Shown: in pieces, positions 22,241 to 53,774 of the stretch
Layout of the letters: each line of letters begins with the position of its first letter
Numbering within the stretch: the first letter of the stretch is position 1
Assembly (NCBI GenBank): GCA_963809695.1
Contig: CAWEKI010000001.1
Span: 21,018-85,017 of the forward strand
Direction: 5' to 3'
DNA length: 64,000 nt
Source: an uncultured Bacteroidota bacterium
GTDB lineage: Bacteria; Bacteroidota; Ignavibacteria; UBA10030; UBA6906
The notes under the pieces: model-generated
Seen by the model: the letters and a program-made list of their open reading frames with translations, nothing else
Database searches by the model: none
What the model was told of the DNA's origin: nothing
Position numbers and translations under genes: made by a program

Positions 22241-22313
22241 GGGCGCGTAGCTCAGGGGTAGAGCATCTGCCTTTTAAGCAGAGGGTCGTTGGTTCGAAGC
22301 CAACCGCGCTCAC
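22241..22313 (+). tRNA. tRNA-Lys (anticodon UUU)
   Basis: Cloverleaf folds by eye: acceptor GGGCGCG/CGCGCTC, D-arm GCTC..GAGC, anticodon stem TCTGC/GCAGA with loop CTTTTAA, T-arm GTTGG-TTCGAAG-CCAAC. Confidence 0.85.
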
Positions 22314-25112: not shown

Positions 25113-25117
25113 CGACG

Positions 25118-26197: not shown

Positions 26198-26312
26198 ACC
26201 GGTCCAAGGATAGGTTTGGAACAAAACCCTCTCAGCACGATAAGCACACGTAGCTTGTCGTCCTTACATGCTCTTCGTCAGGACCCATCGGAGGTCTGAA
26301 GAAGAAAAGCCC

Positions 26313-27176
26313 ATGGAACCCAACCTCGTGATCCTCGCAGGCGGAATTTCCTCCCGGATGAGAAAAGCCGGTCCACCTGCGCTCGAACCGCGTCTTATGA
26401 AGGATGCCGATACCAAGTCGAAGTCGATGATCGGACTCGGGTCCGAAGGGCGTCCTTTTCTGGATTATCTTCTTTTCAGCGCATGGAAGGGAGGACACCG
26501 CGACGTGGTCATCGTGGTGTCGGAGAGCGATACATCCATTCGTTCTTACTACGCCGATCCGAAGCGAACGGCCAGCCTCACCGATGTCCGGATTACGTTT
26601 GCTGTCCAACTCATTCCATCCGGTCGCACAACACCGCTTGGAACGGCAGATGCGCTCCTGCAAGGGCTCCATGCTCGTCGTGATTGGCGGGGGCAGCATC
26701 TTACCGTCTGCAACAGTGATAACCTGTATTCCTCCCGCGCGTTCAAAATGATGTTGGAAGACCCATCGGGGTGTGCGATGGCGGATTATGATCGTGATGC
26801 GCTGGCGTTCGCTCGGTCGAGGGTTGAGCAGTTTGCAGTGGTTGTGAAGGATGAAAAGGGGGCAGTGCTGGGCATCATCGAGAAGCCGAGGGCCGAGGAA
26901 GTGCGGCGGGCGGCAGACAAGAATGGTCGGGTCGGGGTCAGCATGAATCTCTGGCGATTTCCGTATGACAGGATTTTACCGTGCCTGGAGGAGGTGCCGG
27001 CGCATCCCGTCCGCCGTGAGAAAGAGCTGCCCTCTGCGGTGCTCATGATGCTCCAACGATGGCCGGGGTCATTCGTCACGCTCCCAATATCGGAGCATGT
27101 GCCGGACCTGACGGACAGGGGAGACATTGAGATCGTCAGAGCGTACTTGGAAAGTGAATTCCCAGAAATGGGGTAA
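26313..27176 (+). CDS. sugar-phosphate nucleotidyltransferase (NTP_transferase family)
   Basis: N-terminal LVILAGGISSRM (GxGxR nucleotidyltransferase loop). Internal ATG 26313 preferred over ORF-track start 26268. Confidence 0.7.
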   Translation: MEPNLVILAGGISSRMRKAGPPALEPRLMKDADTKSKSMIGLGSEGRPFLDYLLFSAWKGGHRDVVIVVSESDTSIRSYYADPKRTASLTDVRITFAVQLIPSGRTTPLGTADALLQGLHARRDWRGQHLTVCNSDNLYSSRAFKMMLEDPSGCAMADYDRDALAFARSRVEQFAVVVKDEKGAVLGIIEKPRAEEVRRAADKNGRVGVSMNLWRFPYDRILPCLEEVPAHPVRREKELPSAVLMMLQRWPGSFVTLPISEHVPDLTDRGDIEIVRAYLESEFPEMG

Positions 27177-27420
27177 TGCCAGGTGCAAGACAAACACAAA
27201 GAACACGGAGGAAAGCGTATTAGTTTGGGAACAGCAAAAACAAAAGCAGAAACACGACATGTAGCTCCTGCGTCTGTTTATAAACTCTCTTTTCTAACTA
27301 CTCTTCCCCTCTGTGGCTCTTTGAGTCCTTTGGGTTCTCTCTGTTCGTCATGTACCAGAGAGTTCTCATTTTATCTTGCTTTTTTCTCCAAAATTTTCGA
27401 AATTCATACGCTCTTTCAAT

Positions 27421-27503
27421 GCGGAAGTGGCGAAATTGGCAGACGCACCATCTTGAGGGGGTGGCGCCCAAAAGGCATGCGGGTTCAAGTCCCGCCTTCC
27501 GCA
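27421..27503 (+). tRNA. tRNA-Leu (anticodon GAG), type II with long variable arm
   Basis: Acceptor GCGGAAG/CTTCCGC, anticodon stem CCATC/GGTGG with loop TTGAGGG, long variable arm, T-arm GCGGG-TTCAAGT-CCCGC. Confidence 0.85.
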
Positions 27504-27850
27504 CGAAAACGACCTCTCTAACCCCTTGTCAATCAAGGGGTTATTTGTTTTTCTCCCAGAAGGCGGGACTCTCTATGCGCCCCTGGTCCTGCCTCCGCAC
27601 GTGTCGGATCATCCAATCATTTCTCCGTCTAGGTCCTTTTCGTTCCCGCCATTCCTTCGTTGGGTCTTTGCTCCATGGGTGAGGGAAGGGAGACATCCGG
27701 TACGGCTCAACCAGTATGCTCGAGTGATTGCAGTAACGCCGGATCCCTGTCCACCTGTTACATGGCAGCCTCGGGCGACATGTTCATCGGCAGCGGGAGG
27801 TGATCGCTCGTAGGGCATCCTTGGAAAAGGTTCTGCACCGATACGAGCGA
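27481..27850 (+). repeat. tRNA-Leu 3'-end + terminator + ~350-bp flank module (copy A1)
   Basis: Diverged copies at 61684-62060 (A2), 46310-46410 (partial A3) and 62232-62300 (tRNA-3'/terminator-like). Shared motifs: ttcaagtcccgccttccgca, aaccccttgtcaatcaaggggttatttgttt, ctgtccacctgttacatgg, gctcgtagggcatcc. Confidence 0.6.
27520..27552 (+). terminator. rho-independent terminator after tRNA-Leu
   Basis: aacccctt-gtcaatc-aaggggtt hairpin followed by atttgttttt. Confidence 0.6.
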
Positions 27851-28514
27851 CGGCCGGGGATGATTGGGAACACGGGGTTGCTTCTATATCCCTAAGCGCT
27901 GGTCCTTATGTGGATAATGCCGACGTAGGGCCTCATCCTTGGTGCCTAAAGGCCAACGCAGCGTGGGTTGGCGGTCCATATCTCACATTTGCGGGTCCTA
28001 TTCCTGAAGAAGCTTGAACACCCCGCGTGCAAAGGCGCATCGCGTCGTTCCCTGGAGTATCTCCGCTTCTGCCCGGTAGGCATTACCATGCTTGTCTACG
28101 AACCAAGCGTTGACCGTGAGCGGTGTGAGTAGGGGTGTCGTGACGAAATAGCGAACATCCAACCTGCCCGTCAAAGGGTTGCCGCCGTACAGATCATGCA
28201 ACAGTCACACCATGGCGCTATCCAGGATTGTTGCCACGATCCCTCCCAGAGCGATGCCTTCATATCCTTTGAAGCGTTTGTCAATCGTAACCATGGTGGG
28301 CGCGGGTCTACGTGTGTTCGGGGTCTTTCTTGACCCCCGATTCTGCCGATTCATTCTCCAATTCCGCACCTGCACGACGTTTGCCTCTTTTCTCCCATTC
28401 CATTACCTTGGTGTACTTGCCTCGCCAAATGGCCCTATACATGATGGCCGCGCTGATCAACGGTCCAGCCGGTTCGTTGTAGCTGTTGCAGGCGAGAATA
28501 TAAGGAAAATCAGG

Positions 28515-30575
28515 ATGGACGTGACTCAACCAGGCGAATCAAAAGGCTCTCTCCCAGTCGTAAGTGATGACTTGTCGGCACGCAAGAAGGATCTGACCGG
28601 AGAAGACGAAAGGTCGACTGGATTGGAGGGGAGCCTGGAGGCGCGGCTGGAGTTTGAGATGTTGCTCACCGATCTTTCTGCCCGCTTTGTGAATATCCCC
28701 TCTGAGCGTATCGACAGTGAGATTGAGGATGCCGAGCGTCGCATTTGCGAATTCCTTGCCATTGATGTTGCGACGCTTTGGCAGTGGGAGGAAGTTGCGT
28801 CGGGTGCCTTCGCGTTGACCCACCTCTTCAACGCCAATGGAGATCAGGCCCCGCCAGAACGCAGGATTGATGCGATATATCCCTGGGCCCGGCAACAAAT
28901 GCTGCTCGGCCGCGTGGTTGCTTTTTCGTCTCCAAACGATCTGCCGCCCGAGGCAGCCCGCGACCGCGAATCCCTCCAACGTTTCGGCATCAAGTCAGGT
29001 TTGATACTTCCTCTCTCGGTAGGGGGTGGAGCGACCATCGGGATCTTCGGTCTTGAAACAGTGCGAGCGGAGCGTGACTGGCCGGACGATTTGAAAAAGC
29101 GGTTGCAGTTAGTTGCACAGGTCTTTGCTAATGCCCTGGCGCGAAAGCGCGCAGATCAGGCGTTGATTGACAGTGGCGAGCAATTGGCTCTGGCTGCCGA
29201 GGCAGGGGAAGTCGGCATCTGGGTGCGAGATTATACTCACAACCGAATCTTGGGATCGGAAAAATGGCATCGACTGTTCGGGTTTCCCCCTGGTTCCGAG
29301 GTGAGTCTCGACGATTTTATGCAGCGGATTCACGCAGATGACCATGAACAGGTGGAGCGGGCGATTCTACGCACTATGAAGGAGCGCGTTGATTATGCAG
29401 CAGAATTCCGCCTGGTTCTACCCGATGGAAGGATGCGTTGGATCATGTCCCGTGGGCGGATTCAGGAGGCCGCAAATGGGAAACCGCCCCGTATGTTGGG
29501 AGCAGCAATTGACATCACCGAACGCAAACTGTTGGAGGGACAGCTCATTGATCACCTCCAAGAGATCGAGGAGCTCAAGCAGCGCGTCGAACAAGAGAAC
29601 ACCTATCTGCAGGAAGAGATCGGGCTTCTGGTTGAACACGCGGATATTGTGGGGAAGAGTGCAGCTATCAAGCAGGTTCTCGTTCGGGCAAGCCAGGTGG
29701 CCGGGACAGATGCGACGGTCCTCCTGATGGGCGAGACCGGTACGGGAAAAGAACTACTCGCGAGGGCGATCCACAAGATGAGCCGCCGGAAAGAACGCAC
29801 CCTGGTGACAGTTAACTGCGCCTCGCTACCAGCCACACTGATCGAAAGCGAACTCTTTGGCCGTGAAAAGGGAGCCTACACGGATGCACTGACGAAAATG
29901 GTTGGGAGGTTCGAGCTTGCAGACGGGTCAACGCTTTTTCTCGATGAGATTGGCGAAGTTCCTCTTGAGGTACAGTCCAAGCTCCTGCGCGTCCTCGAGG
30001 AAGGACAGTTTGAACGATTGGGCTCCACAAAGACACTGCATGCGAACGTCCGCATCATTGCTGCCACAAACCGGGATCTCGGGCGGTTTGTGCAGGAAGG
30101 CAAATTTCGGCAAGACCTTTACTACAGGTTGAATGTTTTCCCCCTTGTCGTCCCACCGCTCCGCGAACGGCCGGAGGATATCCCGCTTCTGGTCTGGACC
30201 TTTGTCAGAGAGTTTGAGATGAAGATTGGCAAGCGGATCGATCGCATTTCCAGCAAGTCCATGGATTCCATGCAACGTTACCCCTGGCCGGGCAATGTCA
30301 GGGAATTGAGGAATATGATCGAACACGGGATGATTGTGAGCACCGGTAACACCCTCACGGTGAACTTGCCTCAAGATGACCTTTCAGGAAAAAACAAAGC
30401 TTCAGACCTTGACAGTATTGAACGAAGTCATATACTCAAGGTTCTGACAGGGTCCGGCTGGCGTATCGGCGGCAAAAGCGGGGCGGCAGAGGTCTTGGGA
30501 CTGCAAAGAACTACACTTCAGTCGCTGATGAAAAGACTCGGAATCAAACGTCCCCTCCCCGGGGGACGGCAATAA
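28515..30575 (+). CDS. sigma54-dependent transcriptional activator (enhancer-binding protein) with N-terminal GAF/PAS sensory domains
   Basis: AAA+ sigma54-interaction domain (GETGTGKE, ESELFGREKGAYT, GAFT-equivalent region). C-terminal Fis-type HTH. ATG 28515 chosen by colinearity with the paralog at 46943. Confidence 0.85.
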   Translation: MDVTQPGESKGSLPVVSDDLSARKKDLTGEDERSTGLEGSLEARLEFEMLLTDLSARFVNIPSERIDSEIEDAERRICEFLAIDVATLWQWEEVASGAFALTHLFNANGDQAPPERRIDAIYPWARQQMLLGRVVAFSSPNDLPPEAARDRESLQRFGIKSGLILPLSVGGGATIGIFGLETVRAERDWPDDLKKRLQLVAQVFANALARKRADQALIDSGEQLALAAEAGEVGIWVRDYTHNRILGSEKWHRLFGFPPGSEVSLDDFMQRIHADDHEQVERAILRTMKERVDYAAEFRLVLPDGRMRWIMSRGRIQEAANGKPPRMLGAAIDITERKLLEGQLIDHLQEIEELKQRVEQENTYLQEEIGLLVEHADIVGKSAAIKQVLVRASQVAGTDATVLLMGETGTGKELLARAIHKMSRRKERTLVTVNCASLPATLIESELFGREKGAYTDALTKMVGRFELADGSTLFLDEIGEVPLEVQSKLLRVLEEGQFERLGSTKTLHANVRIIAATNRDLGRFVQEGKFRQDLYYRLNVFPLVVPPLRERPEDIPLLVWTFVREFEMKIGKRIDRISSKSMDSMQRYPWPGNVRELRNMIEHGMIVSTGNTLTVNLPQDDLSGKNKASDLDSIERSHILKVLTGSGWRIGGKSGAAEVLGLQRTTLQSLMKRLGIKRPLPGGRQ

Positions 30576-30690: not shown

Positions 30691-30705
30691 TGGCATGATT
30701 CTCGC
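30691..30705 (+). promoter_or_regulatory. candidate sigma54 (-24/-12) promoter upstream of ABM gene 1
   Basis: TGGCAT-N5-TCGC with the GG-to-GC spacing of 12 expected for RpoN promoters; 75 bp upstream of the ABM start and downstream of the EBP gene. Confidence 0.4.
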
Positions 30706-30780: not shown

Positions 30781-31170
30781 ATGGTTCAATTGCGGTCAAC
30801 ATACCAGTTGGAAGCCAATCAAATGGTTCACACTACGATCAGGATGGAAATGTCTCCGGGAAAAGCAAGGGATGCATTGGAGGTCCTTCGCCCCCTGGCT
30901 GAACGAACCAGAGTCGAGCCCGGATGCATAAGTTGTAGGGTCTATCAAGACGTCCAGCAAGAACATACGATCATGATGGAGGAACTGTGGAGCACCCAGC
31001 AAGAGCTTCGCCGGCATCTCTGCTCTTCGGATTACCAGAGGATCCTCCTGGTGATCGAGATGGCAAAAGGGCAACCTGAGATTAGGTTCAATACGATTTC
31101 ACACTCAAGCGGTTTTGAAACCATAGCTGAGGCAAGAAATCACGATGTGATCGTGGCACACGGCCACTGA
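30781..31170 (+). CDS. ABM (antibiotic biosynthesis monooxygenase)-domain protein
   Basis: Pattern ...VEPGCISCRVYQDVQQEHTIMMEELWSTQQELRRHL... matches the ABM-domain consensus (EPGCL.Y........F...E.W.S.EA...H). Paralog at 49063. Confidence 0.65.
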   Translation: MVQLRSTYQLEANQMVHTTIRMEMSPGKARDALEVLRPLAERTRVEPGCISCRVYQDVQQEHTIMMEELWSTQQELRRHLCSSDYQRILLVIEMAKGQPEIRFNTISHSSGFETIAEARNHDVIVAHGH

Positions 31171-31222: not shown

Positions 31223-33643
31223 ATGGCACAAGCAAAGGCTGCAGAGAAGAGCTCCACAGGGCGCGTCAAGGCAGATAAAGCACGGATCGACCGGCTGAAA
31301 GAACAGCTCAGGAGCACGCCTGCCGAGGTCGATTTTGAACGCGTCAGGATTATGGCGGAGGTGTACGATGATGCTGCCGGCTATCAGACGATCATCTGTA
31401 GGGCCAAATTCATGGCAACCCTGCTTGAGAGGAAAAAGTTGTACATCGACGAAAATCTCTTTGTGGGCAGCATGGCAAGCACCGTCAATGGCATCTACAC
31501 CTATCCGGAATGGCAAGTGGATTGGATGATAGAGGAGAATACGATTGATGAGAAGTGTAAAACCCCGGAAGACAAGAAGGCCAACAAATGGGCGCTCGAA
31601 TACTGGGAAAAGCGTGCACTGAAGCCCCGCACGCTCGATATATTCGAAAGAAAATATGGTTTTGATCCGCGCCCTTCCTATGCTTCCGGCAATGTCGTTA
31701 GTTTCTTTGACTGGCCCGGTGGCGGAGGCAACCTGAACTATCCCCGGGTTTACAGGGAAGGGCTTGCCAGCATGATCAAAGAGGTAGAGGAGCGCGAGGC
31801 AGCCCTCGAAATGAGACTGCCGAATGCGGACAAGTTCGCCTTCTATGAAGCCAGTCTAATTGTCATGAGAGCCTTTATTCGCCTGGCTCACCGTTATGCT
31901 GAACTGGCAAGGGAGATGGCGGCTAAGGAAAAGGATGCAACCCGTAAGGCGGAGCTGATAGCAATTGCCGAAACCTGCGAATGGGTTCCTGAGCATCCGG
32001 CCCGCAATCTGCGGGAGGCTATGCAGTGCCATTTCTTCTGTCATATCGTTGCAGAAATAGAGCAGGTCGGTTGCGGCTATTCTGAGGCTTATCTGGGCCA
32101 GAATTTAGAGCCGTTCTATCAGGCTGACAAGGCTGCCGGTCTAATTGGATATGACGAGGCAGTCTATATGTTCGAGAACCTCGTCATCAAGCTGAACGAG
32201 ATCGGCTATTACTATGGCGAGAAGGTCGCCTTGCAGAACTCTGCCGACCTGGGTCAGAGCATCACGCTCGGTGGCTATACCGAAGATGGAGATGATGCCA
32301 CCGCTGAAATGGATTATGTGGTCCTGGATGCATGTAACTACCTTCACTTGCCACAGCCTCCACTGAGTTGCTGCTACACGGAGAGAATGAGCGGTAAATT
32401 CCTGGAGAAGGTCCTCGATGTAATAGGCACGGGTATCGGTATGCCTCAGTTCGTCAATGGCGAAGTGATGGTGAAGCGCGCCTTGAATCTCTTTGCAGAC
32501 TCCAAGAAGGGCCTCACACTCGAAAAAGCCAGACGCACCTGCATTGGCGCCTGCGTAGGTTCATACATTCCCTATGAGACAGGACACCCTGTTGAAGGGC
32601 AGCCCAACCTGGGGAAGGTCATCGAGTTGTTGATGAACAATGGCTTCGATCCCCGCACCAAGCAGCAGATCGGACCCAAGACCGGAGATCCCGAGACCTT
32701 CAAGACTTTCGAAGAACTATACGCTGCATTCCAAAAGCAGATCGATTTCAACGAGGAGGTTCTCCGCCGGGGTGCATGGATCGCCAGCATGTTGTGCGCG
32801 GACTTCCTGCCGACAACCTGGCGCTCGCTTCTTACCGGGGGCTGCATTGAAACCGGCACCGAGGTATGGAATGGCGGAGCCAATTACTACACAACTGCGC
32901 AAATCGTTGTCGGTGGTGTTGACGCCGCCAACTCGCTGATGGCGGTGAAAAAGTTGGTCTATGATGACAAAAAGATCACCATGGCCGAGCTGAAAAAGGC
33001 GCTGACTGCCAATTGGGTAGGATACGAGCATGTACGCAAGATGTGCTATGAAGCTCCCAAACATGGCAACGACATTCCTGAAATGAACAAGCTGACTCGT
33101 AAGGTGTTCAATAGTATCTATGAGGCTTTCCAAAAGGTAGATGGTGGTGGAAACTACATCAGCCAGGACATTAAATCAGCGCCTGATGCCTATACCAAGA
33201 GCATCCACAACCTGATGGGACTGGTGACGGGCGCGCTGCCGAACGGTAAATATGCCGGGGTTGCACTCACCGATGGAAGTCTGTCGGCCATGCCGGGAAC
33301 CGATGTCAATGGGCCTACCGCGTTGATTATGTCTGCAGCGAAGAGTCAGGATGCCATTAAGTATACAGCAACACACATGAACATGAAATTCCCGCCCGAT
33401 CAGCTGAAAACACGCAAGGGCCGGGATAACGTGCTGAATCTTATCAAGACCTATTTTGACAATGATGGCTATCACATTCAGTTTAATGTGCTCGATACCA
33501 ACATCCTGAGAGATGCACAGAAGCACCCTGAAAACTACCGTGACCTTGTGGTTCGGGTAGCTGGTTTCAGCGCTTTCTTCACCAAACTGGCCCCGGGTGT
33601 GCAGGAAGAGGTCATTGCCCGTACCTTGCAGAGTTTCAAATAA
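31223..33643 (+). CDS. glycyl radical enzyme (pyruvate formate-lyase fold), 806 aa, with non-canonical active-site loop
   Basis: C-terminal glycyl-radical motif VRVAGFSAFF. The C-terminal ~350 aa are colinear with E. coli PflB. The catalytic loop aligns as IGACVGSY against PflB IACCVSPM: a single Cys, neither the CC of PFL nor the CxE of the eliminases. Confidence 0.85.
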   Translation: MAQAKAAEKSSTGRVKADKARIDRLKEQLRSTPAEVDFERVRIMAEVYDDAAGYQTIICRAKFMATLLERKKLYIDENLFVGSMASTVNGIYTYPEWQVDWMIEENTIDEKCKTPEDKKANKWALEYWEKRALKPRTLDIFERKYGFDPRPSYASGNVVSFFDWPGGGGNLNYPRVYREGLASMIKEVEEREAALEMRLPNADKFAFYEASLIVMRAFIRLAHRYAELAREMAAKEKDATRKAELIAIAETCEWVPEHPARNLREAMQCHFFCHIVAEIEQVGCGYSEAYLGQNLEPFYQADKAAGLIGYDEAVYMFENLVIKLNEIGYYYGEKVALQNSADLGQSITLGGYTEDGDDATAEMDYVVLDACNYLHLPQPPLSCCYTERMSGKFLEKVLDVIGTGIGMPQFVNGEVMVKRALNLFADSKKGLTLEKARRTCIGACVGSYIPYETGHPVEGQPNLGKVIELLMNNGFDPRTKQQIGPKTGDPETFKTFEELYAAFQKQIDFNEEVLRRGAWIASMLCADFLPTTWRSLLTGGCIETGTEVWNGGANYYTTAQIVVGGVDAANSLMAVKKLVYDDKKITMAELKKALTANWVGYEHVRKMCYEAPKHGNDIPEMNKLTRKVFNSIYEAFQKVDGGGNYISQDIKSAPDAYTKSIHNLMGLVTGALPNGKYAGVALTDGSLSAMPGTDVNGPTALIMSAAKSQDAIKYTATHMNMKFPPDQLKTRKGRDNVLNLIKTYFDNDGYHIQFNVLDTNILRDAQKHPENYRDLVVRVAGFSAFFTKLAPGVQEEVIARTLQSFK

Positions 33644-33663
33644 TCTGAAGATCAAGGAAGCTC

Positions 33664-33702
33664 ATGTAAGGCATGGCACTTGGTCATGCCTTACATTTTG
33701 TT
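33664..33702 (+). terminator. rho-independent terminator after the GRE gene
   Basis: Perfect 12-bp inverted repeat atgtaaggcatg ... catgccttacat followed by tttgtt. Confidence 0.6.
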
Positions 33703-33704
33703 CC

Positions 33705-34045
33705 GTCAACACCCTTTCCTGTCCCGCCCAAGCGGGAGCCTTAGTTTCGGGGTTGACTAAGAAGCAGCAGTAGTCATTTCGGGAGAGCGAAGCGACGAAG
33801 CAGTCTCTTATCGGCTCTGGGGTTGCTTCGCCCCGCCAAGGCGGGGCTCGCAGTGACAGGAAAGCAGTCAGATTGTGCGCCAGAGGTTCATCCCTTGGGG
33901 GCTTCGGGCCCACAGGTCCGGTCCTTCGGACCGAGACTCTCGGTCTGAAAGGCCGGAGCAGGCTCGCAATGACAGTTGGAGGACTTTTGGGTCACTCCCG
34001 AAGAGTGTGATTTGAGCGCAACCGAACAGAAGTTAATCAAGGAGG
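33705..34045 (+). promoter_or_regulatory. repeat- and hairpin-rich structured leader upstream of the PFK-like gene (possible cis-regulatory RNA or clustered palindromic elements)
   Basis: Multiple GC-rich hairpins (tcccgc-ccaa-gcggga; ccccgcc-aa-ggcgggg; ggtcc-ttc-ggacc; ccgaga-c-tctcgg) and a twice-repeated ggctcgcaRtgacag motif (33845, 33961). Confidence 0.35.
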
Positions 34046-34051
34046 CACATT

Positions 34052-35224
34052 ATGAGTACGGAAATTGGTCATGGTAGTTTTCTCAGGCGCATTGCTATCA
34101 ATGTTGGCGCCGGCTACGTTCCTGGCATAAATGCCGTTATTACGGGTGCTGCGATGGCGGCCGGTAAAATGGGATGGGAGATGGTCGGTGTTTGCGATGG
34201 GTTTGAAGGTTTACTTCACCCCGAAAAATATCCTGAGGGTGGACTGGTTACACTCAGCCCTCGGCTGATAGAAAATCTTGATCCTTCTGCAGGGGGTATA
34301 CTTGGCCAATCGGTCCGGGTCGATCCGTTTCATGTCCGCACGGTAAACAAAGACGACATGGTGGAAGAAGTGGACATGTCCGATGATCTCTTGAAAAGGC
34401 TGAAGGAAGAAAAGATTGACGGATTGATTTCAGTGGTTGGCGGACTTGGGCTGAGTATTCTCTACAAGCTCCACCGCAAAGGGCTCAATGCGGTGTGCAT
34501 CCCAAGGTCGATCGATAATGATATCGCCTGTACTTCGGTGTCATTCGGATTCAACAGCGCCCTCACCTTCACCATCGAAATGCTGGACCGTGCCCGTCAG
34601 GCGGCCCAGTCTGCACGCAAAATTGCAGTAGTCGAGGTACAGGGAGAGCAGGCTGGATGGATTGCACTCCAGGCAGGTATAGCAGCTTGTGCTGATGTCA
34701 TCATGATCCCCGAGATCCCTGTTGATCTCAAGAATGTGGCACGGAGATTAAAAGATAAGATGTCACCCAGAAGGCCGTACGGGCTTGTTGTGGTGGCCCA
34801 GGGAGCGAAACTTATCAGTCAAACTAAGAAGGAAGGGGCCACATCCTCCCTAAAAGCTACTCTGTCGCCACTGGCTACCGGTGATTCCAGCAGTGAGCAC
34901 GTCATTCAGAGTTCTGGCCAGGCAGCAGAGACTGTGGCAAGAGAACTTCAGCTGCTGATAGCCGAGGAAACCTATCCGCTCGTCATCGGTCCCTGGGTCA
35001 GGGGTGGTACCCCAACTGCTGTCGACCGCCAACTGGGGATGGCGTACGGAGCCGGGGCATTGCAGGCGCTGAAAGCGGGGAAGAATGGAGTAATGGTTGC
35101 TTTTGTTCCTCCTGAAATCAGGTTCGTGCCGCTGGCAGAAGCAATCAACAAAGTCAGAACGGTGTCTGCGGACAGCGAATTCCTGAAGATTGCTCATTCA
35201 CTTGGCATTTATTGTGGAAAATAA
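34052..35224 (+). CDS. phosphofructokinase-fold protein with degenerate catalytic motifs (PFK-like)
   Basis: Colinear with ATP-PFK (PGINAVITGAAMAA ~ PGMNAAIRGVVRAA; IPRSIDNDI ~ LPGTIDNDI; KIAVVEVQG ~ RISVVEVMG). GGDGS is replaced by GGLGL. The MGR fructose-6-P arginine is replaced by QGE. The N-terminal SGGD is replaced by VGAG. Confidence 0.7.
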   Translation: MSTEIGHGSFLRRIAINVGAGYVPGINAVITGAAMAAGKMGWEMVGVCDGFEGLLHPEKYPEGGLVTLSPRLIENLDPSAGGILGQSVRVDPFHVRTVNKDDMVEEVDMSDDLLKRLKEEKIDGLISVVGGLGLSILYKLHRKGLNAVCIPRSIDNDIACTSVSFGFNSALTFTIEMLDRARQAAQSARKIAVVEVQGEQAGWIALQAGIAACADVIMIPEIPVDLKNVARRLKDKMSPRRPYGLVVVAQGAKLISQTKKEGATSSLKATLSPLATGDSSSEHVIQSSGQAAETVARELQLLIAEETYPLVIGPWVRGGTPTAVDRQLGMAYGAGALQALKAGKNGVMVAFVPPEIRFVPLAEAINKVRTVSADSEFLKIAHSLGIYCGK

Positions 35225-35236: not shown

Positions 35237-36211
35237 GTGAACAATCAAACAATAAACCCAAGCGATATGACAGGGACGGTGCTGAATATCCAACGATACT
35301 GCAGCCACGACGGTCCGGGCATCCGCACTACCGTCTTCCTGAAGGGTTGCTCGCTGCGCTGCAAATGGTGCGGCAATCCTGAAAGCATCCGGATAAAACC
35401 GGAAATGTCCTACGATTCCAGGAAATGTACGGGCAAGAAGGCATGTGGAGTTTGCCTGAAGTCGCCCTTCCCGGAAGGCGCCTTCTATGTTGTGGAGGGC
35501 GACGATGACAAAGTAAAAGTCAACTGGCATCTGGCCATGGATTGCGACGAGACATTGACATCGCTCTGCCCGACAGGAGCGCTCGAAATGTTTGGCAAAA
35601 AGATGACAGTAAAAGAGGTGTTGGACGAGGTGGAGAAGGATGCTTCCTTTTACCGAAATACAGGGGGTGGAATGACATTGAGTGGCGGTGAGATCATGCT
35701 GCAGCCTGATTTCAGCGCAGGTTTGCTGAAGGAAGCGCACGATCGTGGCTTCAATACGGCCATAGAAACAGCGTGCAACGCTCCATGGCCTTTCCTGGAG
35801 AAGGTGCTGCCCCACGTTGATACGATGCTGCATGACCACAAGCTGACCATCCCGGAGAGGCACAAGAAATGGACCGGCGTGGACAACAAGCGTATACTCG
35901 AGAACTTCAAGAAAGCTTACGAGACGTTTCCCAACATTGACTTCATCGCCCGCACGCCGCTGATTCCCGGCATCAATGCCGATGAGGAACATATACGAGC
36001 AGTGCTGGCGTTCATTCGCCCTCACAAGAACGTGATTGACTATGAGCTGTTGCCGTATCACCGCTTCGGCCTGGGCAAGTACGAATACCTGGGCAAGGTG
36101 TATGAACTGGATGATTACAAAACGCCGTCTGATGAATTGGTTAAACATTTACAGGCCATCATCGACGAGGCCTTCGGCCGAAGTGCCCAGACAGCCGCGG
36201 TCGTGAAATAG
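35237..36211 (+). CDS. glycyl-radical enzyme activating enzyme (radical SAM, PflA family with extra ferredoxin-like Cys clusters)
   Basis: CSHDGPGIRTTVFLKGCSLRCKWCGNPES (PFL-AE signature with CxxxCxxC). Additional CxxCxxC clusters. GTG start preceded by an aaggagga SD-like sequence. Confidence 0.85.
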   Translation: MNNQTINPSDMTGTVLNIQRYCSHDGPGIRTTVFLKGCSLRCKWCGNPESIRIKPEMSYDSRKCTGKKACGVCLKSPFPEGAFYVVEGDDDKVKVNWHLAMDCDETLTSLCPTGALEMFGKKMTVKEVLDEVEKDASFYRNTGGGMTLSGGEIMLQPDFSAGLLKEAHDRGFNTAIETACNAPWPFLEKVLPHVDTMLHDHKLTIPERHKKWTGVDNKRILENFKKAYETFPNIDFIARTPLIPGINADEEHIRAVLAFIRPHKNVIDYELLPYHRFGLGKYEYLGKVYELDDYKTPSDELVKHLQAIIDEAFGRSAQTAAVVK

Positions 36212-36250: not shown

Positions 36251-37390
36251 ATGAGCAATGAGGACAAATCGTTAGATATATACGAACGACTGGCGGCGGC
36301 GCAGGAGGCGCTTCCGCATGGCTTCCCCAGGACGAAATCTGGGGTGGAAATACAGCTGATAAAGATGGCGTTCACACCCGAGGAAGTTTCGCTTGCGGGC
36401 CAGCTGACCCGCTTCCCGGAGACCGCAGCCGATATCGCGAAACGGGTTGGTATGGAGGAAGCCGATGTAACAGCCCTACTCGAGAGTCTGATACCACGAC
36501 GGCTGGTACGTCTCGACTCAAAGGGGATGGCAGCTCCCGGTATGGTGCCTACAGCCGAAGGCGAGAAAAAGTACCGGCTGGGTCCTTTTCTGGTTGGCTG
36601 GTACGAAGCCAATATGCGGCTGCTGGATAAGGAATTTGCGGAGCTCTTCGAGCAATTCGTGATCGAGGGCGGCGGGGAGAAGATCCTTGCGCCCCGGCCC
36701 GGCGTGCTGGGCGTTGTACCTGTGCGCGGCTCTCTGAAACCTGAGCTGATGGCGGCTATGGAGCCCCACCTGGATATCGATGCCCATTTCAAACGCCACG
36801 AGCGTTTTCTCGTGATCCCCTGTGTGTGCAAAAAGGAGCGGGAGGATCTGGGGCACTTCGACTGCAAGTTCCCCATGAAACGATGTGGGTTTGTAGGATT
36901 GCCACCTCACACCCCGCTCTCAGAAACCGTGCTTGACAGGGAGGAGGCGAACAAGCTCCTTTATGAACTTGAGGAGATGGGACACGTTCACCTTGCGTTT
37001 TACGGATACACAATGGGAGCGGATATACCTCAGTTTGTAGGCACCTGTAACTGCGATGGCTGTTGCTGTGGGGTATTGCACGGACAGAAACTCTCCGGCA
37101 TATCGGAAGGGGCGCAACGGTCGAACTACCGCGCTGTCATCGATCCAGAGAAGTGCATTTCCTGCGGCGTGTGCCAGGGGCGTTGCCCGGTGGACGCCAT
37201 CGCTGATGATGAGAATGGCAAGTCGAATGTGGAACGGGCAAAGTGCATCGGTTGTGGTGTGTGCGTGATCGGATGTGTAAGCGTTGCGATCGAGATGCTG
37301 CCGGTATCAAAGGAGGAGTGGTTCCATGTGCCTTCCAGCATGGCGGAATGGGAGGAGAGGCGCCTGGAGTATTTGGCAGCGCAGAAGTAG
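36251..37390 (+). CDS. Cys-rich iron-sulfur protein with two C-terminal 4Fe-4S ferredoxin motifs (possible GRE-associated electron-transfer / accessory protein)
   Basis: CISCGVCQGRCP and CIGCGVCVIGC ferredoxin motifs. Additional Cys clusters CVCKK...C..C and CNCDGCCCG. N-terminal helical, HTH-like region. Confidence 0.55.
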   Translation: MSNEDKSLDIYERLAAAQEALPHGFPRTKSGVEIQLIKMAFTPEEVSLAGQLTRFPETAADIAKRVGMEEADVTALLESLIPRRLVRLDSKGMAAPGMVPTAEGEKKYRLGPFLVGWYEANMRLLDKEFAELFEQFVIEGGGEKILAPRPGVLGVVPVRGSLKPELMAAMEPHLDIDAHFKRHERFLVIPCVCKKEREDLGHFDCKFPMKRCGFVGLPPHTPLSETVLDREEANKLLYELEEMGHVHLAFYGYTMGADIPQFVGTCNCDGCCCGVLHGQKLSGISEGAQRSNYRAVIDPEKCISCGVCQGRCPVDAIADDENGKSNVERAKCIGCGVCVIGCVSVAIEMLPVSKEEWFHVPSSMAEWEERRLEYLAAQK

Positions 37391-38249: not shown

Positions 38250-41030
38250 ATGGGCAAAAACGCTGAAGTAACACGACTTGACGAGGCCCGAACAAAGCGG
38301 GCTCTCTGGAAGAAATGGGGCCCCTACCTGAGCGAACGGCAGTGGGGGACTGTTCGGGAAGACTACAGCCACAGTGGCGACGCCTGGTCGTACTTCACAC
38401 ATGATCAGGCACGGTCGCGCGCATACCGCTGGGGTGAGGACGGACTTGCAGGGATCTCCGACGATCACCAGGTGCTCTGCTTCGCGCTTGCACTCTGGAA
38501 TGGAAAGGACCCGATCCTGAAGGAGCGAGCTTTCGGGTTGAGCAACGGAGAAGGAAATCATGGCGAAGACGTCAAGGAGTATTACTTCTACCTTGACAGT
38601 ACCCCCACGCATTCCTACATGAAATACCTCTACAAGTATCCGCAGGCAGCGTTCCCCTATGCCGATCTTGTTGAGACAAACCGCAGGCGCTCCAAGCAGG
38701 AACTTGAGTACGAGTTGCTGGACACCGGTATCTTTGATGGCGATCGGTACTTCGATGTGCTCGTTGAATATGCCAAGGGCGGCCCCGAAGACGTTCTCGT
38801 CAAGATCAGCGTGTCCAATCGCGGTCCGGAACCGGCCGAGCTCCATGTGCTCCCGACACTATGGTTTCGCAATACCTGGTCCTGGCAGGGCGGTGGTACC
38901 AAGCCCATGCTTGCACAAACTGATCATGCGGGTGGGAGCGTTATGTCAGCCCGTCATACTGACCCACTCTTTCAGCAGTTCATGTCAGACTACAAGCTCT
39001 TCTGCGAGGGGACGCCAGCTCTACTGTTCACTGAGAATGAGACCAACAACGAGAGGTTATTTGGCGGCACAAACGCTTCACCTTATGTCAAGGACGGCAT
39101 CAACAACTATGTGGTGCGCGGAGAGAAAGATGCGGTGAATCCCGCCAACAACGGAACAAAAGCCGCCGCACACTACCCGTTGACCATCAATGCTGGCGAG
39201 ACCAGGATTGTCCGATTGCGCCTTGCGAGGGCAGTGCCGGATGCGGAAGGCACCCCCTTCCGGGAATATGACGATATCTTCGACAAGCGGATTCGCGAAG
39301 CCGATGAGTTCTATGACGGCATTACTCCGCCTGCGGTCAAAGCCGCTCCTGATCGGGCCCGTGTGTTGCGTCAGGCGCTTGCCGGCATGCTGTGGAGCAA
39401 GCAGTACTATTACTATGATCTCCATACGTGGCTGAAAGAACACAATACCGGACCGGGGTCGACACCTGCTACGCGCGGCGACCAGCGCAACGGCGCGTGG
39501 TTCCATATGCTGAACGACGATATTTTCTCGATGCCAGATAAGTGGGAATACCCCTGGTATGCGGCGTGGGACCTCGCGTTCCACACGCTTCCTCTGGCGT
39601 CGGTGGACCCGGATTTTGCGAAGTCACAGCTGGGCCTTCTGCTGCGCAATGAGTATCTGCATCCGAACGGTCAGATACCAGCCTACGAGTGGAACTTCGG
39701 AGATGTCAATCCGCCTGTTCATGCCTATGCCACCATCCAGATCTATTTACAGGATAAGGCCAGGAACAACGGAAAAGGCGATATCGCATTCCTGAAGGCT
39801 GCATTCGAAAAACTCCTGCTGAACCACACCTGGTGGGTGAATCGGAAGGATCGTTACGGGAGTAACGTTTTCGAAGGAGGCTTTCTAGGTCTGGACAATA
39901 TCGGGGTCTTCGACCGGAGCGCTCCGCTACCGACAGGCGGGTATCTTGAGCAGGCAGACGGAACGGCCTGGATGGTCTTCTTCAGCCAGCAGATGGTTCG
40001 CATTGCCACGGAACTCGCGCTGCATGAGCCCCACTATGAGCAATTCGTCTCGAAGTTCGCCGAGAACACGATGTGGATCGCAGGGTCGATGGACCGGATC
40101 GGTGGGGGGAGTGAAGGGATGTGGGACGACGAGGATGGATTCTTCTATGACGTGCTGCGCCTTCCTGACGGTAACTCAATGCGGCTCAAAGTCCGGTCGA
40201 TGGTTGGTCTCCTGCCGCTTGCGGCGGTGGCCATATTCGAAGAGGACATCTTGAAACAGCTCCCGACATTCAGAAAATATGCTGCAAGGTTCATGGCCCG
40301 TCATCCGGAGCTTGCTGCGAATGTGCATATTCCTACAGAGCCGGGCATGGGTGGCAGGCGCATGCTTTCCATCCTCAATGAAGACAAACTGCGTCGCATC
40401 CTGGCGCGTATGTTGGATGAGAACGAGTTCCTCGGTCCCCATGGCATTCGCGCCCTTTCGCGTTATCACCTGGATCACCCGTTCATTTTCAGGCAGGGCG
40501 ACCAGGAGTTCAGTGTTTCGTATCTCCCGGCTGATTCCGACAGCGGTATGTTCGGCGGGAACTCCAACTGGAGAGGTCCTGTCTGGATGCCGGTGAACCT
40601 CATGTTGTACAACGCGCTTCTCCGGCTGGGTGCATACTATGGTGATTCATTCATGGTAGAGTGCCCGACCGGTTCCGGACGGCAGATGAACCTGATCGAG
40701 GTGGCGCACGAGCTTGCCGAGCGGCTGATCTCGACGTTCGAGCTGGATGGCGAGGGGCACCGGCCAGTCTTCGGCGGCATGGAGAAGTTCCGGAACGACC
40801 CGCTCTGGCGAGATTGCATACTGTTCAACGAGTATTTTCACGGCGACAACGGCGCTGGCATTGGCGCCAGCCATCAGACCGGCTGGACCGGCTGCATCGC
40901 CCGGATCATCCAGAGCAATGGGCTCATCACAAAAGAGATGGTGCAGGATAGTGATTTCGAGCGCAGGGTGTTGAAGGCCTCAGTGTCTGTTGAGTCTGAT
41001 TCGCACAAAGTGAAGGAAACGCGCATATGA
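38250..41030 (+). CDS. large (alpha/alpha)6-barrel glycoside hydrolase, GH63-like (mannosyl-/glucosyl-glycerate hydrolase or processing alpha-glucosidase-like)
   Basis: 926 aa. N-terminal [18 protein letters not shown]-type motif and a long Trp-rich C-terminal catalytic-domain pattern that I associate with GH63 / MGH-family enzymes. Assignment is from memory, not a search. Confidence 0.45.
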
Positions 41031-42076
41031 AGGCTATTACCGTAGAGCCCTTGAAACCGGGGACTGCTCAACTGGAGGAGATCCCGGAACCCGATGTTCA
41101 CCAGGGATCGGTTCTGGTCGAAGCAGTGGCGGTGGGCGTTTGTGGCACTGATGTCGAGATTGTGGAAGGAAAGTATGGCTGGGCTCCTCCAGGTAGGACC
41201 CGCCTCGTTCTCGGCCACGAATCTCTCGGCCGCGTGCTCGACCCGGGTCTGTCCGGCGGGCTGAAGAAGGGTGATCTCGTCGTGGGCATTGTCCGGCGTC
41301 CTGACCCCGTTCCGTGTCCCAATTGCGGAGTGGGGGAGTGGGACATGTGTCGCAATGGCCAGTACACCGAGAGGGGGATCAAACAGATTGACGGTTACAT
41401 GTCGGAGCGCTGGAGGATCGAACCCGAGTACGCGATGAAAGTAGATCCTACTCTGGGAATTCTCGGCGTGCTACTTGAACCGACAACAGTTGTGGCCAAG
41501 GCGTGGGAGATGGTCAAGGCGATAGGCCAGCGCTCTTTCTGGGAGCCGCAAAATGTGCTTGTAACAGGTGCTGGGCCTATTGGCCTGCTGGCGGCTCTCA
41601 TCGGGGTGCAAAAGGGGCTGGATGTCCATGTCCTGGATCGCGTCACATCGGGTCCCAAGGTGGAACTGGTGAAGGCTCTTGGTGCAACCTACCATTCGGG
41701 CTCTGTTAAGGACGTCGGCTTCGAGCCGGATATTATTGTCGAGTGTACCGGTGTGGGGCAAGTCGTCGCCGAATCCATACTTAAGGTGGGGGCCGGTGGA
41801 ATCGTATGTCTCACGGGTGTCGGAAGCGGTGGTGCGGCAGCGGGATCGGCCATTGCAGATGTTGCAGCGGGAGCTGTGCTGAGGAATAACGTAATCGTTG
41901 GAAGTGTGAATGCCAACAAGAGGCACTGGTACAAGGCCGGTCAAGCGTTGGCCCAGGCTGATCGGGCATGGCTGGCACGGCTCCTCACGAGACGCGAAAG
42001 ACCGGAGAATTTCAGCAAGGCTTTAAATCGACAACCCGATGACATCAAGGTTATCATTCAGTTCTCAGATCTGTAG
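41027..42076 (+). CDS. zinc-dependent medium-chain dehydrogenase, glucose (aldose) 1-dehydrogenase-like
   Basis: CGTD..I..G (catalytic Zn), GHE, second Zn site CPNCGVGEWDMC. Overall colinearity with archaeal glucose 1-dehydrogenases (MKAI.V.P...). Overlaps the upstream stop (ATGA). Confidence 0.7.
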   Translation: MKAITVEPLKPGTAQLEEIPEPDVHQGSVLVEAVAVGVCGTDVEIVEGKYGWAPPGRTRLVLGHESLGRVLDPGLSGGLKKGDLVVGIVRRPDPVPCPNCGVGEWDMCRNGQYTERGIKQIDGYMSERWRIEPEYAMKVDPTLGILGVLLEPTTVVAKAWEMVKAIGQRSFWEPQNVLVTGAGPIGLLAALIGVQKGLDVHVLDRVTSGPKVELVKALGATYHSGSVKDVGFEPDIIVECTGVGQVVAESILKVGAGGIVCLTGVGSGGAAAGSAIADVAAGAVLRNNVIVGSVNANKRHWYKAGQALAQADRAWLARLLTRRERPENFSKALNRQPDDIKVIIQFSDL

Positions 42077-42089
42077 TCGGCAACCGTGA

Positions 42090-42869
42090 ATGACAATGGA
42101 TAGCAGCACGCACAGGGCATTCCCGTGGCAGGTATACCTCTCAGAACTCATTGGTACAGCAGCCCTCCTTCTGGTGGGGCTGTCGCTGGTGATTGCCATG
42201 TTTGGAAGTGGCAGCCCGATCCCCGGGCTCATGCCGAACGATGCTCTGCGCCGGGCAATCACGGGATTTCTGTTCGGCACAACAGGGGCACTCATCGCGC
42301 TCTCTCCGGTCGGCAAGAGAAGCGGCGCACACATCAACCCGGTGGTCACCCTCGGATTCCGGCTCGCAGGAAAACTCGAATTGAATGTGGCGCTGGGGTA
42401 CATCGCTGCACAGCTTCTCGGCGGGATACTGGGCTGTATCCCACTTCTCCTCTGGGGAACGACCGGCCTCAGTGTTGCCTACGGAGCTACGTTACCCGGA
42501 GTGGGGTACAGTACATTGACCGTTGTGATGGGTGAAGTGGCGACGACCTTTGCGATGGTCTCCCTCCTGGTGCTGTTCCTGGCATTCCGGAAGATCCGCC
42601 GATTCACACCGGCCCTTTTTCCGCCCCTCTATTCGATCATGGTCTGGGCCGAGTCGCCGATATCGGGTACGAGTACCAATCCGGCCAGGAGCCTCGGTCC
42701 TGCTGTGGTCTCAGGACAGTGGGAGGGGTGGTGGATCTACTGGGTAGGACCGGTGCTCGGGGCACTTCTGGCGATGCTTGCGTGCAGTTTTCTTGTCAAG
42801 AAGATTGAGGTGGCAAAGCTTTATCATTTCGACAGTGATCGTGACAGACTATTTCGAAAATCTCAATAA
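42090..42869 (+). CDS. MIP-family channel (aquaporin / aquaglyceroporin)
   Basis: Two half-helix motifs: HINPVVT (NPV variant of the first NPA) and TNPARSLGPA (second NPA). Six TM segments. Confidence 0.8.
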   Translation: MTMDSSTHRAFPWQVYLSELIGTAALLLVGLSLVIAMFGSGSPIPGLMPNDALRRAITGFLFGTTGALIALSPVGKRSGAHINPVVTLGFRLAGKLELNVALGYIAAQLLGGILGCIPLLLWGTTGLSVAYGATLPGVGYSTLTVVMGEVATTFAMVSLLVLFLAFRKIRRFTPALFPPLYSIMVWAESPISGTSTNPARSLGPAVVSGQWEGWWIYWVGPVLGALLAMLACSFLVKKIEVAKLYHFDSDRDRLFRKSQ

Positions 42870-46670: not shown

Positions 46671-46811
46671 ATAGACATTCCCCATTTTCCAGGAAAACTC
46701 TGTGGGTTTTCCTGAACACCTGGTGGAAGCAGGTTCCTGGAACCATCCTGGAACCTTCCTGGAACGTTCCTGGAACGATCTTGGAGCCACGTGCAAATGG
46801 GGAATGTCCAT
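46671..46811. mobile_element. MITE-like 141-bp element with ~15-bp terminal inverted repeats and 8-bp target-site duplication
   Basis: TIRs atagacattccccattt / aaatggggaatgtccat. Flanked by the direct repeat cgcaactt (46663-46670 and 46812-46819). Interior carries tandem tcctggaac repeats (46728-46780). Confidence 0.45.
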
Positions 46812-46942
46812 CGCAACTTCTTTTGCATCTCAAATGGATTTTGGATAATTTCCTGTTGACGCAATTTCTCGGGCGCCGAATCAGTCCCGGCAGCACCTCG
46901 GTAGCCCTTGCGATACCGACAACCCCATCATCTGAAGCAAGT

Positions 46943-48922: not shown

Positions 48923-49034
48923 GGACGGTATTAAACCCTTTCCCGGGCACGATCCAATTCTCAATTGTTCCAGCAATCGCCCCAACCTGTTGCTCCGCTG
49001 CAGATTCTCGATAACTCCTCCCATATCTGCAATG

Positions 49035-49049
49035 TGGCACGCGCAATGC
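49035..49049 (+). promoter_or_regulatory. candidate sigma54 promoter upstream of ABM gene 2
   Basis: TGGCAC-gcgca-aTGCg; GG/GC spacing 12; ~14 nt upstream of the ABM start codon (nearly leaderless). Confidence 0.45.
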
Positions 49050-49062
49050 GTACTTCTCAGGC

Positions 49063-50141: not shown

Positions 50142-50186
50142 TAATCGAATTCAGCAATCGTGATCATCATACCAAAGGAGGCCCAC

Positions 50187-50717: not shown

Positions 50718-50792
50718 GACGGCCGCTGCACTGCTCATGCTTCCTGTGGCTTTGCTGTTGAAATGCATCGATCGTTTTGAGGAGACAATACC

Positions 50793-53770: not shown

Positions 53771-53774
53771 AACA

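Follow-up and report, generated by a model that had tools for sequence, protein, structure and literature searches.

A phosphofructokinase-like protein without catalytic residues, encoded beside the activases of glycyl radical enzymes

Activation of glycyl radical enzymes (GREs) is usually described as the work of two proteins, the GRE itself and its activase, with a generic flavodoxin or ferredoxin as feed. Why, then, should a protein with the fold of a glycolytic enzyme, phosphofructokinase (PFK), be encoded between these two? The question is raised by a 64,000-nucleotide stretch of DNA from an uncultured Bacteroidota bacterium (Ignavibacteria; GenBank assembly GCA_963809695.1, contig CAWEKI010000001.1, positions 21,018 to 85,017), referred to here as the window. 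An original prediction had pointed to a degenerate PFK-like protein, here named PFKL, encoded between a GRE and its activase, and this placement was correct. The three genes are the following:

31223–33643, + strand: glycyl radical enzyme with PFL-like and Gly_radical domains (domain matches).
34052–35224, + strand: PFKL, 390 amino acids, PFK fold without the catalytic residues (PF00365, AlphaFold2, Foldseek, and the ratio of nonsynonymous to synonymous substitution rates, dN/dS).
35237–36211, + strand: GRE-activating radical S-adenosylmethionine (SAM) enzyme, starting 12 bp past the PFKL stop (TIGR02494, 320 bits versus a cut-off of 174).

The PFKL gene begins with an ATG located 6 nt 3′ of an AGGAGG ribosome-binding site (34040–34045). 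That its product is colinear with PFKs, as had been proposed, is confirmed both by hidden Markov model (HMM) alignment and by structure prediction. The PF00365 match in Pfam covers the whole profile (1–277 of 277; E-value 1.7e-62, 211.7 bits). The AlphaFold2 model has a mean predicted local distance difference test score (pLDDT) of 87.3, with residues 1–9 and 258–286 as its low-confidence parts, and Foldseek aligns it to the Bacillus stearothermophilus PFK (6pfk) with a target-normalised template modelling (TM) score of 0.93 and a root-mean-square deviation of 2.7 Å. The best matches among solved structures are the pyrophosphate (PPi)-dependent PFK of Ca. Prometheoarchaeum (9cir) and bacterial ATP-dependent PFKs (1zxx, 6pfk). 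At the level of curated families, PFKL falls under the cut-off of all 11 PFK models in NCBIfam, including the best one, TIGR02483 or 'PFK_mixed' (243.6 bits versus 430.55), and NF002872 (224.7 versus 253); the NCBIfam search found no model that covers the family of PFKL. Its members are nonetheless named '6-phosphofructokinase' in the JGI and NCBI databases. PFKL is probably a catalytically inactive descendant of the group III ('mixed-substrate') PfkA-type phosphofructokinases.

The residues of PFKL were mapped by HMMER alignments to solved PFKs and by MAFFT alignments to the E. coli and B. stearothermophilus enzymes, and catalytic positions are given here in E. coli PfkA numbering unless they are said to be residues of PFKL. 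The main altered sites in the window protein, with PFKL residues in brackets and all placed by these alignments, are:

34106–34126, + strand: N-terminal nucleotide loop GAGYVPG (residues 19–25) in place of SGGDAPG, with D12 replaced by Y.
34439–34453, + strand: GGLGL (residues 130–134) in place of GGDGS, with the Mg-ATP aspartate Asp103 missing.
34496–34522, + strand: C149 and the former catalytic-base loop P-R-S-I-D-N-D (residues 151–157).
34640–34648, + strand: QGE (residues 197–199) in place of MGR, with Arg171 lost and replaced by E.

The substitutions of GGDGS, MGR and the N-terminal loop that had been described were thus all reproduced by per-residue alignment, and further ones were added. 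At residues 190, 250, 308 and 314 of PFKL, R162 has become K, E222 Q, R243 Y and H249 P. The contacts with the sugar phosphate are therefore mostly gone: two of the three arginines that hold the phosphate group of fructose 6-phosphate are lost together with His249, and among R162, R243, H249 and R252 only R252 (residue 317) is retained. R72 (residue 89) is also kept. The catalytic-base motif PGTIDND has changed to PRSIDND, in which G124 is replaced by R and T125 by S, while D127 and D129 remain. A catalytic Asp or Arg moved to a shifted position, which would have contradicted the prediction, was looked for. The GGLGL loop contains no Asp, the nearest being D123 of 'KIDGL', which corresponds to the conserved 'GID' of canonical PFKs, and no Arg occurs within 5 residues of QGE. 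The suggestion that PFKL could be a sugar-phosphate-binding protein has no support, given the changes at R162 (to K), R243 (to Y or F) and H249 (to P).

Are these losses peculiar to one gene, or do they belong to a family? More than 120 sequence clusters are 80–94% identical to PFKL. An exhaustive HMMER search indicated that the degenerate clade reaches down to about 41% identity, all its members lacking D12 and D103 and nearly always R171; at 43% identity or less there is an abrupt switch to canonical PFKs with GGGD, GGDG, PKTIDND and MGR. Conservation was compared between 40 PFKLs adjacent to an activase and their 26 nearest canonical PFKs. Positions 12, 103/104, 171 and 243, invariant in 25 or 26 of the 26 canonical relatives, have entropies in the PFKLs of 1.39, about 1.9, 2.21 and 1.65 bits, respectively, against a family mean of 1.12. 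Position 12, an Asp in 26 of 26 canonical relatives, is Y, F or H in a loop of the form G[AGS]G[YFH], the counterpart of GGDG reads GG[QRKHL]G, and position 171 is occupied by E, A, G, S, K or Q. Taken as groups, the ATP-site positions (1.20 bits) and the fructose 6-phosphate-site positions (0.97 bits) are conserved no better than the protein average. Since the catalytic positions drift without any new fixed residue, selection on phosphoryl transfer has been lost and not redirected.

The protein as a whole is, by contrast with these positions, strongly constrained. The closest PFKL pairs give a dN/dS of 0.077–0.087 at a dS of about 0.35, which is unsaturated. Such strong purifying selection indicates that PFKL is a working protein and not a decaying gene. 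The PFK fold and the loss of the phosphoryl-transfer residues that had been proposed are both supported in this way, and, judging from its residues, PFKL is very probably not a PFK despite its database name. The former catalytic-base loop is still kept in the family as P[RK]S[IV][DE]ND. The SIDND reported to survive holds for the window protein and its close relatives, but most of the family has S-I-E-N-D instead (Glu at position 127 in 30 of 40). Within the PFKLs, S125 is found in 37, D129 in 35, G170 in 40 and R252 in 39 of the 40 sequences. In the numbering of PFKL, the conserved residues also include G19, S153, D157, G198, R317, R182 (E. coli R154) and D215. Conservation exceeds that of the canonical relatives both at the old effector site (R182, R241, D215) and at the old active site (S153, D157, R317). 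Two features are gained. C149, the only conserved Cys in the 390 residues, is invariant in the PFKLs (40/40), at a position where canonical relatives mostly have Gly (22/26). The other is an inserted loop:

34814–34915, + strand: inserted loop, approximately residues 255–288, with the motif SLKA[ST]LSPLATG (pLDDT, motif conservation).

This insertion of about 35 residues is predicted to be disordered (pLDDT below 50 for 258–286), and its LSP motif is almost unchanged in the PFKLs adjacent to an activase (L271 40/40, S272 39/40, P273 40/40) and missing from canonical PFKs. According to the alignment, the insertion would leave the fold just past the E222 strand, putatively at the lip of the former sugar site.

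The family is linked to GRE systems in a strict manner. The GRE of the window carries the Gly loop RVAGFS and the Cys loop GACVGSY, here designated C-V-G, and the GRE clade linked to PFKL shares the invariant Cys loop ARRTC[IV]GACVGSYIPYETGH (residues 436–455 of the window GRE). A genome scan based on PFKL compared 19 loci with a PFKL at least 56% identical and 64 loci with canonical PFKs at most 43% identical. A GRE lies just upstream and/or an activase just downstream in all 19 of the former, and a GRE or an activase was found in none of the 64 canonical-PFK loci. The converse metagenome scan, based on the GRE, gave the same picture: PFKL follows 19 of 19 GREs at least 69% identical that have enough downstream sequence, and these PFKLs are followed by an activase wherever the contig is long enough, whereas approximately 45 GREs at most 48% identical have an adjacent activase and no PFKL. 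The search for orthologs co-occurring with GRE genes that had been proposed as a check thus gave strict linkage in both directions. One GRE 73% identical, at locus L099, has no PFKL in the 719 bp available, and its Cys loop differs (GGCVPCF). Intact PFKL orthologs occur in Acidobacteriota, Alpha- and Gammaproteobacteria, Bacteroidales, Verrucomicrobia, Planctomycetes and Flavobacteriaceae (metagenome-assembled genomes), as well as in Chloroflexota, and this multi-phylum spread of the module implies horizontal transfer. A full-text literature search, of incomplete coverage and thus no proof of absence, returned no paper connecting GREs or their activases with a protein of the PFK family.

Some unusual architectures were also encountered in these searches. 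An apparent GRE-PFK fusion (P0190) was discarded because its Gly_radical match stops short of the Gly, a frameshift or a gene-call artefact being its most likely origin. The multidomain hits P0158, P0173, P0199, P0210 and P0130 proved to be canonical PFKs with unrelated extensions. At locus L167, a stand-alone gene (880–1674) encodes a 264-residue 'PFL-like' fragment that matches GRE residues 452–628 approximately, and this gene shares 4 bp with the start of a divergent PFKL (P0126, 47% identical). A second contig shows this arrangement too, and the fragment may represent either a truncated GRE or an artefact of assembly or gene calling.

With which of its two neighbours does PFKL belong? Gene order, spacing and co-divergence indicate the activase, together with an RnfB-like polyferredoxin considered below, and not the GRE itself. 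In 38 of 38 loci the activase starts between −13 and +40 bp from the PFKL stop, as extrapolated from alignments; the median, −4, corresponds to the overlapping stop/start layout typical of translational coupling. The gap between GRE and PFKL has a median of roughly 130 bp, and anywhere from 22 to 6922 bp separate the GRE stop from PFKL residue 11. At loci L012 and L015, PFKL directly precedes the activase even though AcnX, CoA-transferase and other genes separate the pair from a GRE that is far away or beyond the end of the contig; L016 has the order PFKL-activase-GRE, and L164 the order GRE-epimerase-PFKL-activase. The last two loci contain a second type of GRE (L016 10156–11737; L164 4405–6897), only 29–31% identical and with a 'GCCE' Cys loop, ISGCCE[SN]RL; the activases of these modules are 64–65% and the PFKLs 48–57% identical. 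An NAD-dependent epimerase/dehydratase, an FNR-like reductase and an SBF-like transporter are neighbours of this second type.

The divergence of the three proteins is in agreement with the gene order. In 15 loci of the C-V-G clade with all three genes complete, the pairwise divergences of PFKL and activase correlate with r = 0.89 (0 of 2000 Mantel permutations equal to or above the observed value), those of PFKL and GRE with r = 0.35 (34 of 2000) and those of activase and GRE with r = 0.38, all of these being descriptive statistics on related sequences. When L164 is added, the values become 0.91, 0.69 and 0.59, respectively.

The activase itself has its CX3CX2C motif at residues 38–45, and its ferredoxin-like insert (residues 60–115) keeps four conserved Cys (C64, C70, C73, C112) of the usual eight, which suggests one auxiliary [4Fe-4S] cluster and not two. 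Activases of the C-V-G clade likewise retain just 4 of the 8. The idea that PFKL compensates for the lost Fe-S cluster was rejected as a general explanation, since the PFKL-linked activases of the GCCE type keep 8 of 8 Cys and the PFKL-free activase of locus L109 shows the same Cys loss.

The second candidate partner is encoded directly after the activase in the window:

36251–37390, + strand: 'FdX', RnfB-like polyferredoxin of 379 amino acids (profile searches, Cys motifs).

FdX consists of a winged-helix-like N-terminus, Cys-rich motifs (CxC...C...C, as IPCVCK...C...C, and GTCNCDGCCCG) and a C-terminal 2x[4Fe-4S] domain, and it is conserved in more than 120 clusters at 72% identity or more. 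Its first 290 residues match no Pfam or NCBIfam model, and a profile search against the PDB returned only the ferredoxin part and weak hints of a helix-turn-helix; the AlphaFold2 model is poor (pLDDT 55.8) and unusable for a fold search. The relation to PFKL becomes apparent in loci with one or two extra PFKL paralogs, named here B type, which are 58–68% identical, equally degenerate and devoid of the LSP loop, although one of them (L006 12822–14033) retains a divergent loop. The B-type paralogs were located as follows:

L003, 6229–7422: B-type paralog.
L006, 10425–11552 and 12822–14033: B-type paralogs.
L011, 7760–8662: B-type paralog.
L091 and L096: B-type paralogs also present.

In L006 and L011 every B-type paralog is followed at 13–20 bp by an FdX homolog in place of the activase. 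For the paralog of L003 the distance to the FdX homolog downstream is about 230 bp and may include a frameshift; in L091 and L096 such a homolog is again downstream, farther off or at an unmeasured spacing. In the complete genome OW818685.1 (L170) the order is GRE-FdX-PFKL-activase, with 4-bp overlaps at the FdX-PFKL and PFKL-activase junctions. By gene adjacency, then, the PFK-like proteins of this family go together with Fe-S redox proteins: the activase in the case of the A type, FdX in that of the B type.

What the data directly support is that catalytic constraint has been lost in a protein under purifying selection, that this protein is linked exclusively to GRE systems, and that it is coupled more tightly to the activase than to the GRE. 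From this we propose, as a reading that we would accept as readily as doubt, that PFKL, without being a catalyst itself, serves the activase/ferredoxin activation module of a new, sulfur-linked GRE clade as an adaptor or regulator. Translational coupling would keep the amounts of PFKL and activase at a constant ratio, and PFKL would bind the activase and/or FdX. We infer from the same associations that it could act as an adaptor or gate of the module, for example by keeping electron donor and activase together. Activation may in addition depend on a small anionic ligand bound in the remnant PFK clefts, and the near-invariant LSP loop is a candidate contact with the activase. A bolder version, possible but one that we hold only tentatively, is that PFKL founds a new class of GRE activation factors. 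PFKL would then form a complex with the activase and the RnfB-like polyferredoxin and would be required, possibly under gating by a ligand, for installation of the glycyl radical, with the LSP loop as the contact to the activase. Its GREs would belong to a widespread, uncharacterised and sulfur-linked family of soil and sediment bacteria.

Several observations weigh against the adaptor proposal. The activase of L109, 53% identical and with an equally reduced ferredoxin insert, belongs to a sister GRE clade without PFKL; since sister clades use similar activases without it, PFKL is not generally required by such activases. In part, the close spacing and co-divergence could arise without physical interaction, if PFKL and activase recombine as one unit whose border is the GRE-PFKL spacer. 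Pairing with Fe-S proteins offers no obvious chemical role for a PFK fold. Finally, the conservation of S-I-[DE]-N-D, of R252 and mostly of R72 may reflect a residual or altered catalytic or ligand-binding function.

To which substrate the clade might be directed can be approached from the GRE and its surroundings. The C-V-G loop lacks the Glu of the C-x-E found in HypD, glycerol dehydratase, CutC and IslA, and the best NCBIfam match of the window GRE is HypD, with 482 bits versus a cut-off of 1100. The neighbouring elements in the window are:

28179–30575, + strand: sigma-54-dependent activator (GAF-PAS-AAA+-HTH_8) upstream of the cluster; the family is also upstream in L001 and L170.
30781–31170, + strand: ABM-domain protein, the first gene of the cluster; also in L001 and L170.
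33664–33696, + strand: terminator-like hairpin with a 14-bp stem and a T tract, 20 nt past the GRE stop.
42882–44567, + strand: flavoprotein similar to coenzyme A (CoA)-disulfide reductase, with a C-terminal rhodanese domain, a recurrent neighbour.

Among the recurrent neighbours of the cluster, those related to regulation are the sigma-54 activator, whose GAF and PAS domains are sensor domains, and the ABM-domain protein. Neighbours of sulfur type comprise fusions of a CoA-disulfide-reductase-like protein with rhodanese, single rhodaneses, SulP and SBF-like transporters and an NMT1/SsuA-like binding protein. The GRE of L109, from the sister clade without PFKL, is set among genes of SsuA/TauA-type ABC transporters. 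These neighbourhoods point to a sulfur or sulfonate substrate for the GRE of this uncharacterised clade, and to nothing more specific. A third group of recurrent neighbours (SAM synthetase, small ferredoxins and FNR-like reductases) fits a cluster that supplies its own means of activation. Several lineages, that of the window included, also have a GH63/MGH1-like hydrolase, a glucose-dehydrogenase-like alcohol dehydrogenase (ADH) and an MIP channel near the cluster. The spacer between GRE and PFKL (33644–34051, 408 nt) is strongly structured (minimum free energy −176 kcal/mol, z = −4.68), and may determine how strongly the GRE is expressed relative to the activation genes. Its hairpin sequence recurs in L104, L001 and L006, and an Rfam search of the spacer gave no match.

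Further genes of the window extend this picture on both sides. Upstream, genes of sugar type (23232–27176) encode an SSF symporter, a GHMP kinase of the galacto/mevalonate type and a sugar-1-phosphate nucleotidyltransferase; downstream (38250–42869) lie a DUF2490 protein, the GH63/MGH1-like hydrolase of 926 residues, the glucose-dehydrogenase-like ADH and the MIP channel. The cluster is accompanied by the GH63 and ADH genes also in L001, L003, L004, L013, L017 and L167. A second, paralogous regulatory and transport set occupies 46781–56406; its sigma-54 activator is 46% identical to the first, and it includes an ABM-like open reading frame (ORF; 49147–49374), a protein joining CoA-disulfide reductase and rhodanese (50793–52478), two SBF-like transporters and a SulP transporter (54604–56406). 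The gene families of this second set form in L170 one operon directly upstream of GRE-FdX-PFKL-activase. Candidate sigma-54-type promoters with GG-N10-GC spacing, TGGCATGATTCTCGC (30691–30705) and TGGCACGCGCAATGC (49035–49050), precede the two ABM-like genes; a scan of the whole window with the sigma-54 consensus found no enrichment over chance. Two tRNA genes were also detected (22241–22312 and 27421–27503; Rfam RF00005, 68.8 and 48.9 bits), the second inside a mechanically called ORF (27183–27521) that is, for this reason, probably not a gene.

How do other explanations fare against these data? The database name would make PFKL an ordinary ATP- or PPi-dependent phosphofructokinase that sits in the operon by chance. 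Although the PF00365 match, the names of its relatives and the presence of D127, D129, R72 and R252 in the window protein agree with it, this is hardly credible for a protein that scores below all NCBIfam PFK cut-offs, whose D12, D103, R171, R243 and H249 are lost and unconstrained, and which never occurs outside GRE/activase clusters, while 64 of 64 canonical relatives do. A neofunctionalised enzyme deserves closer attention, even if we consider it rather unlikely. PFKL would in that case act on a substrate or product of the GRE pathway by means of the S-I-[DE]-N-D loop, R72, R252 and Cys149, for instance by phosphoryl transfer from a donor other than Mg-ATP or by acting on a sulfonated sugar that is an analogue of fructose 6-phosphate. 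The conservation of S125, D129, G170, R252 and C149 would be explained, and the less basic pocket left by the replacement of R162 by K, R243 by Y or F and H249 by P might suit a mono-anionic sulfonate. The surroundings are suitable as well, with SulP, SBF-like, rhodanese, CoA-disulfide-reductase-rhodanese and SsuA/NMT1-like genes on the sulfur side and GH63/MGH1-like hydrolase, ADH and MIP channel on the sugar side in several loci, and a precedent exists in SqiK, the PfkA-family sulfofructose kinase of the sulfo-EMP2 pathway (PMC9594981). Nevertheless, positions 12, 103 and 171 drift without a conserved alternative, and the ATP-site and fructose 6-phosphate-site groups remain at average conservation. 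A metabolic enzyme would moreover be expected to track the GRE and its substrate, yet PFKL tracks the activase across two GRE types about 30% identical that sit in different neighbourhoods (AcnX/CoA-transferase, epimerase, GH63), and the B-type paralogs pair with a ferredoxin.

PFKL might instead be a structural or regulatory subunit of the GRE, in the manner of the beta/gamma subunits of benzylsuccinate synthase (BSS) or the gamma subunit of 4-hydroxyphenylacetate decarboxylase (HPAD), for example one that stabilises the open Gly-radical domain or modulates access of the substrate. Its gene usually lies directly downstream of the GRE gene and accompanies only particular GRE clades with unusual Cys loops (ARRTC[IV]GACVGSYIPYETGH or GCCE), and extra subunits are well established in other GREs. 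We would nonetheless be surprised if this were the case: the terminator-like hairpin and the variable gap between the two genes would argue against equal expression levels, PFKL remains beside the activase in loci whose GRE lies as far as 6.9 kb off or on the downstream side, its divergence follows that of the activase (r 0.89) and not that of the GRE (r 0.35), one and the same type of PFKL-activase module serves GREs about 30% identical, and Fe-S motifs like those of the BSS and HPAD small subunits are absent from PFKL.

If the adaptor proposal is true, a dedicated and strictly conserved third component with the fold of a glycolytic enzyme is a new element in radical-enzyme activation, and it could explain why the laboratory reconstitution of some environmental GREs has failed. 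PFKL also serves as a marker of a large, multi-phylum GRE clade with a C-V-G Cys loop devoid of the catalytic Glu and with neighbourhoods of sulfur or sulfonate type. From a practical point of view, thousands of '6-phosphofructokinase' entries that belong to the PFKL family are probably misannotated, and metabolic reconstructions of uncultured bacteria from soil and sediment can be distorted by the glycolytic step that such names wrongly suggest.

Comparison with known systems places PFKL closest to the group III or 'mixed-substrate' PfkA enzymes (TIGR02483), which have the same fold, are colinear and share 33–40% identity with it. They resemble it in the basic residue at position 124 (K in group III, R in PFKL), the motifs AGW[IL]AL, IPE and DR-L, the length of 360–390 residues and an insertion after the E222 strand. 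Unlike them, PFKL lacks D12, D103, R171, R243 and H249, has Ser at T125 and mostly Glu at D127, has gained the invariant Cys149 and the LSP loop, and is never found in a glycolytic context but always beside a GRE activase or a polyferredoxin. SqiK, a PF00365 sulfofructose kinase of the sulfo-EMP2 pathway compared here by its description in a review (PMC9594981), is likewise a PfkA-family member in an organosulfonate setting, and the PFKL clusters have a sulfonate or sulfur character. SqiK differs in being active as a kinase and in its gene partners, a sulfoquinovosidase, a sulfoquinovose isomerase and a sulfofructose-1-phosphate aldolase, none of whose families is among the recurrent neighbours of PFKL clusters.

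As for extra proteins in GRE systems, PFKL shares with BSS beta/gamma, HPAD gamma, BssE and GrcA the condition of a system-specific component encoded in GRE operons. These accessory proteins (BssE being of an AAA+ type) are needed for assembly, activation or repair, and the small subunits of BSS and HPAD are small Fe-S proteins that bind the GRE. PFKL differs from all of them in its unrelated fold, its 390 residues, the lack of an Fe-S motif and the coupling of its gene to the activase. Non-catalytic PFK-fold modules are known from the alpha, or regulatory, subunit of the plant PPi-dependent PFK and from the C-terminal half of eukaryotic PFK-1, which, like PFKL, have kept the fold under selection while losing catalytic residues. 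No canonical PFK is encoded in the window or next to PFKL in the loci, and the extra PFK-family genes of L003, L006 and L011 are equally degenerate. The plant and eukaryotic modules regulate a catalytic PFK, whereas the partners indicated for PFKL are a radical SAM activase and an Fe-S protein. In kind, then, PFKL resembles the known non-catalytic PFK-fold modules, and what is new in it is a partner other than a PFK.

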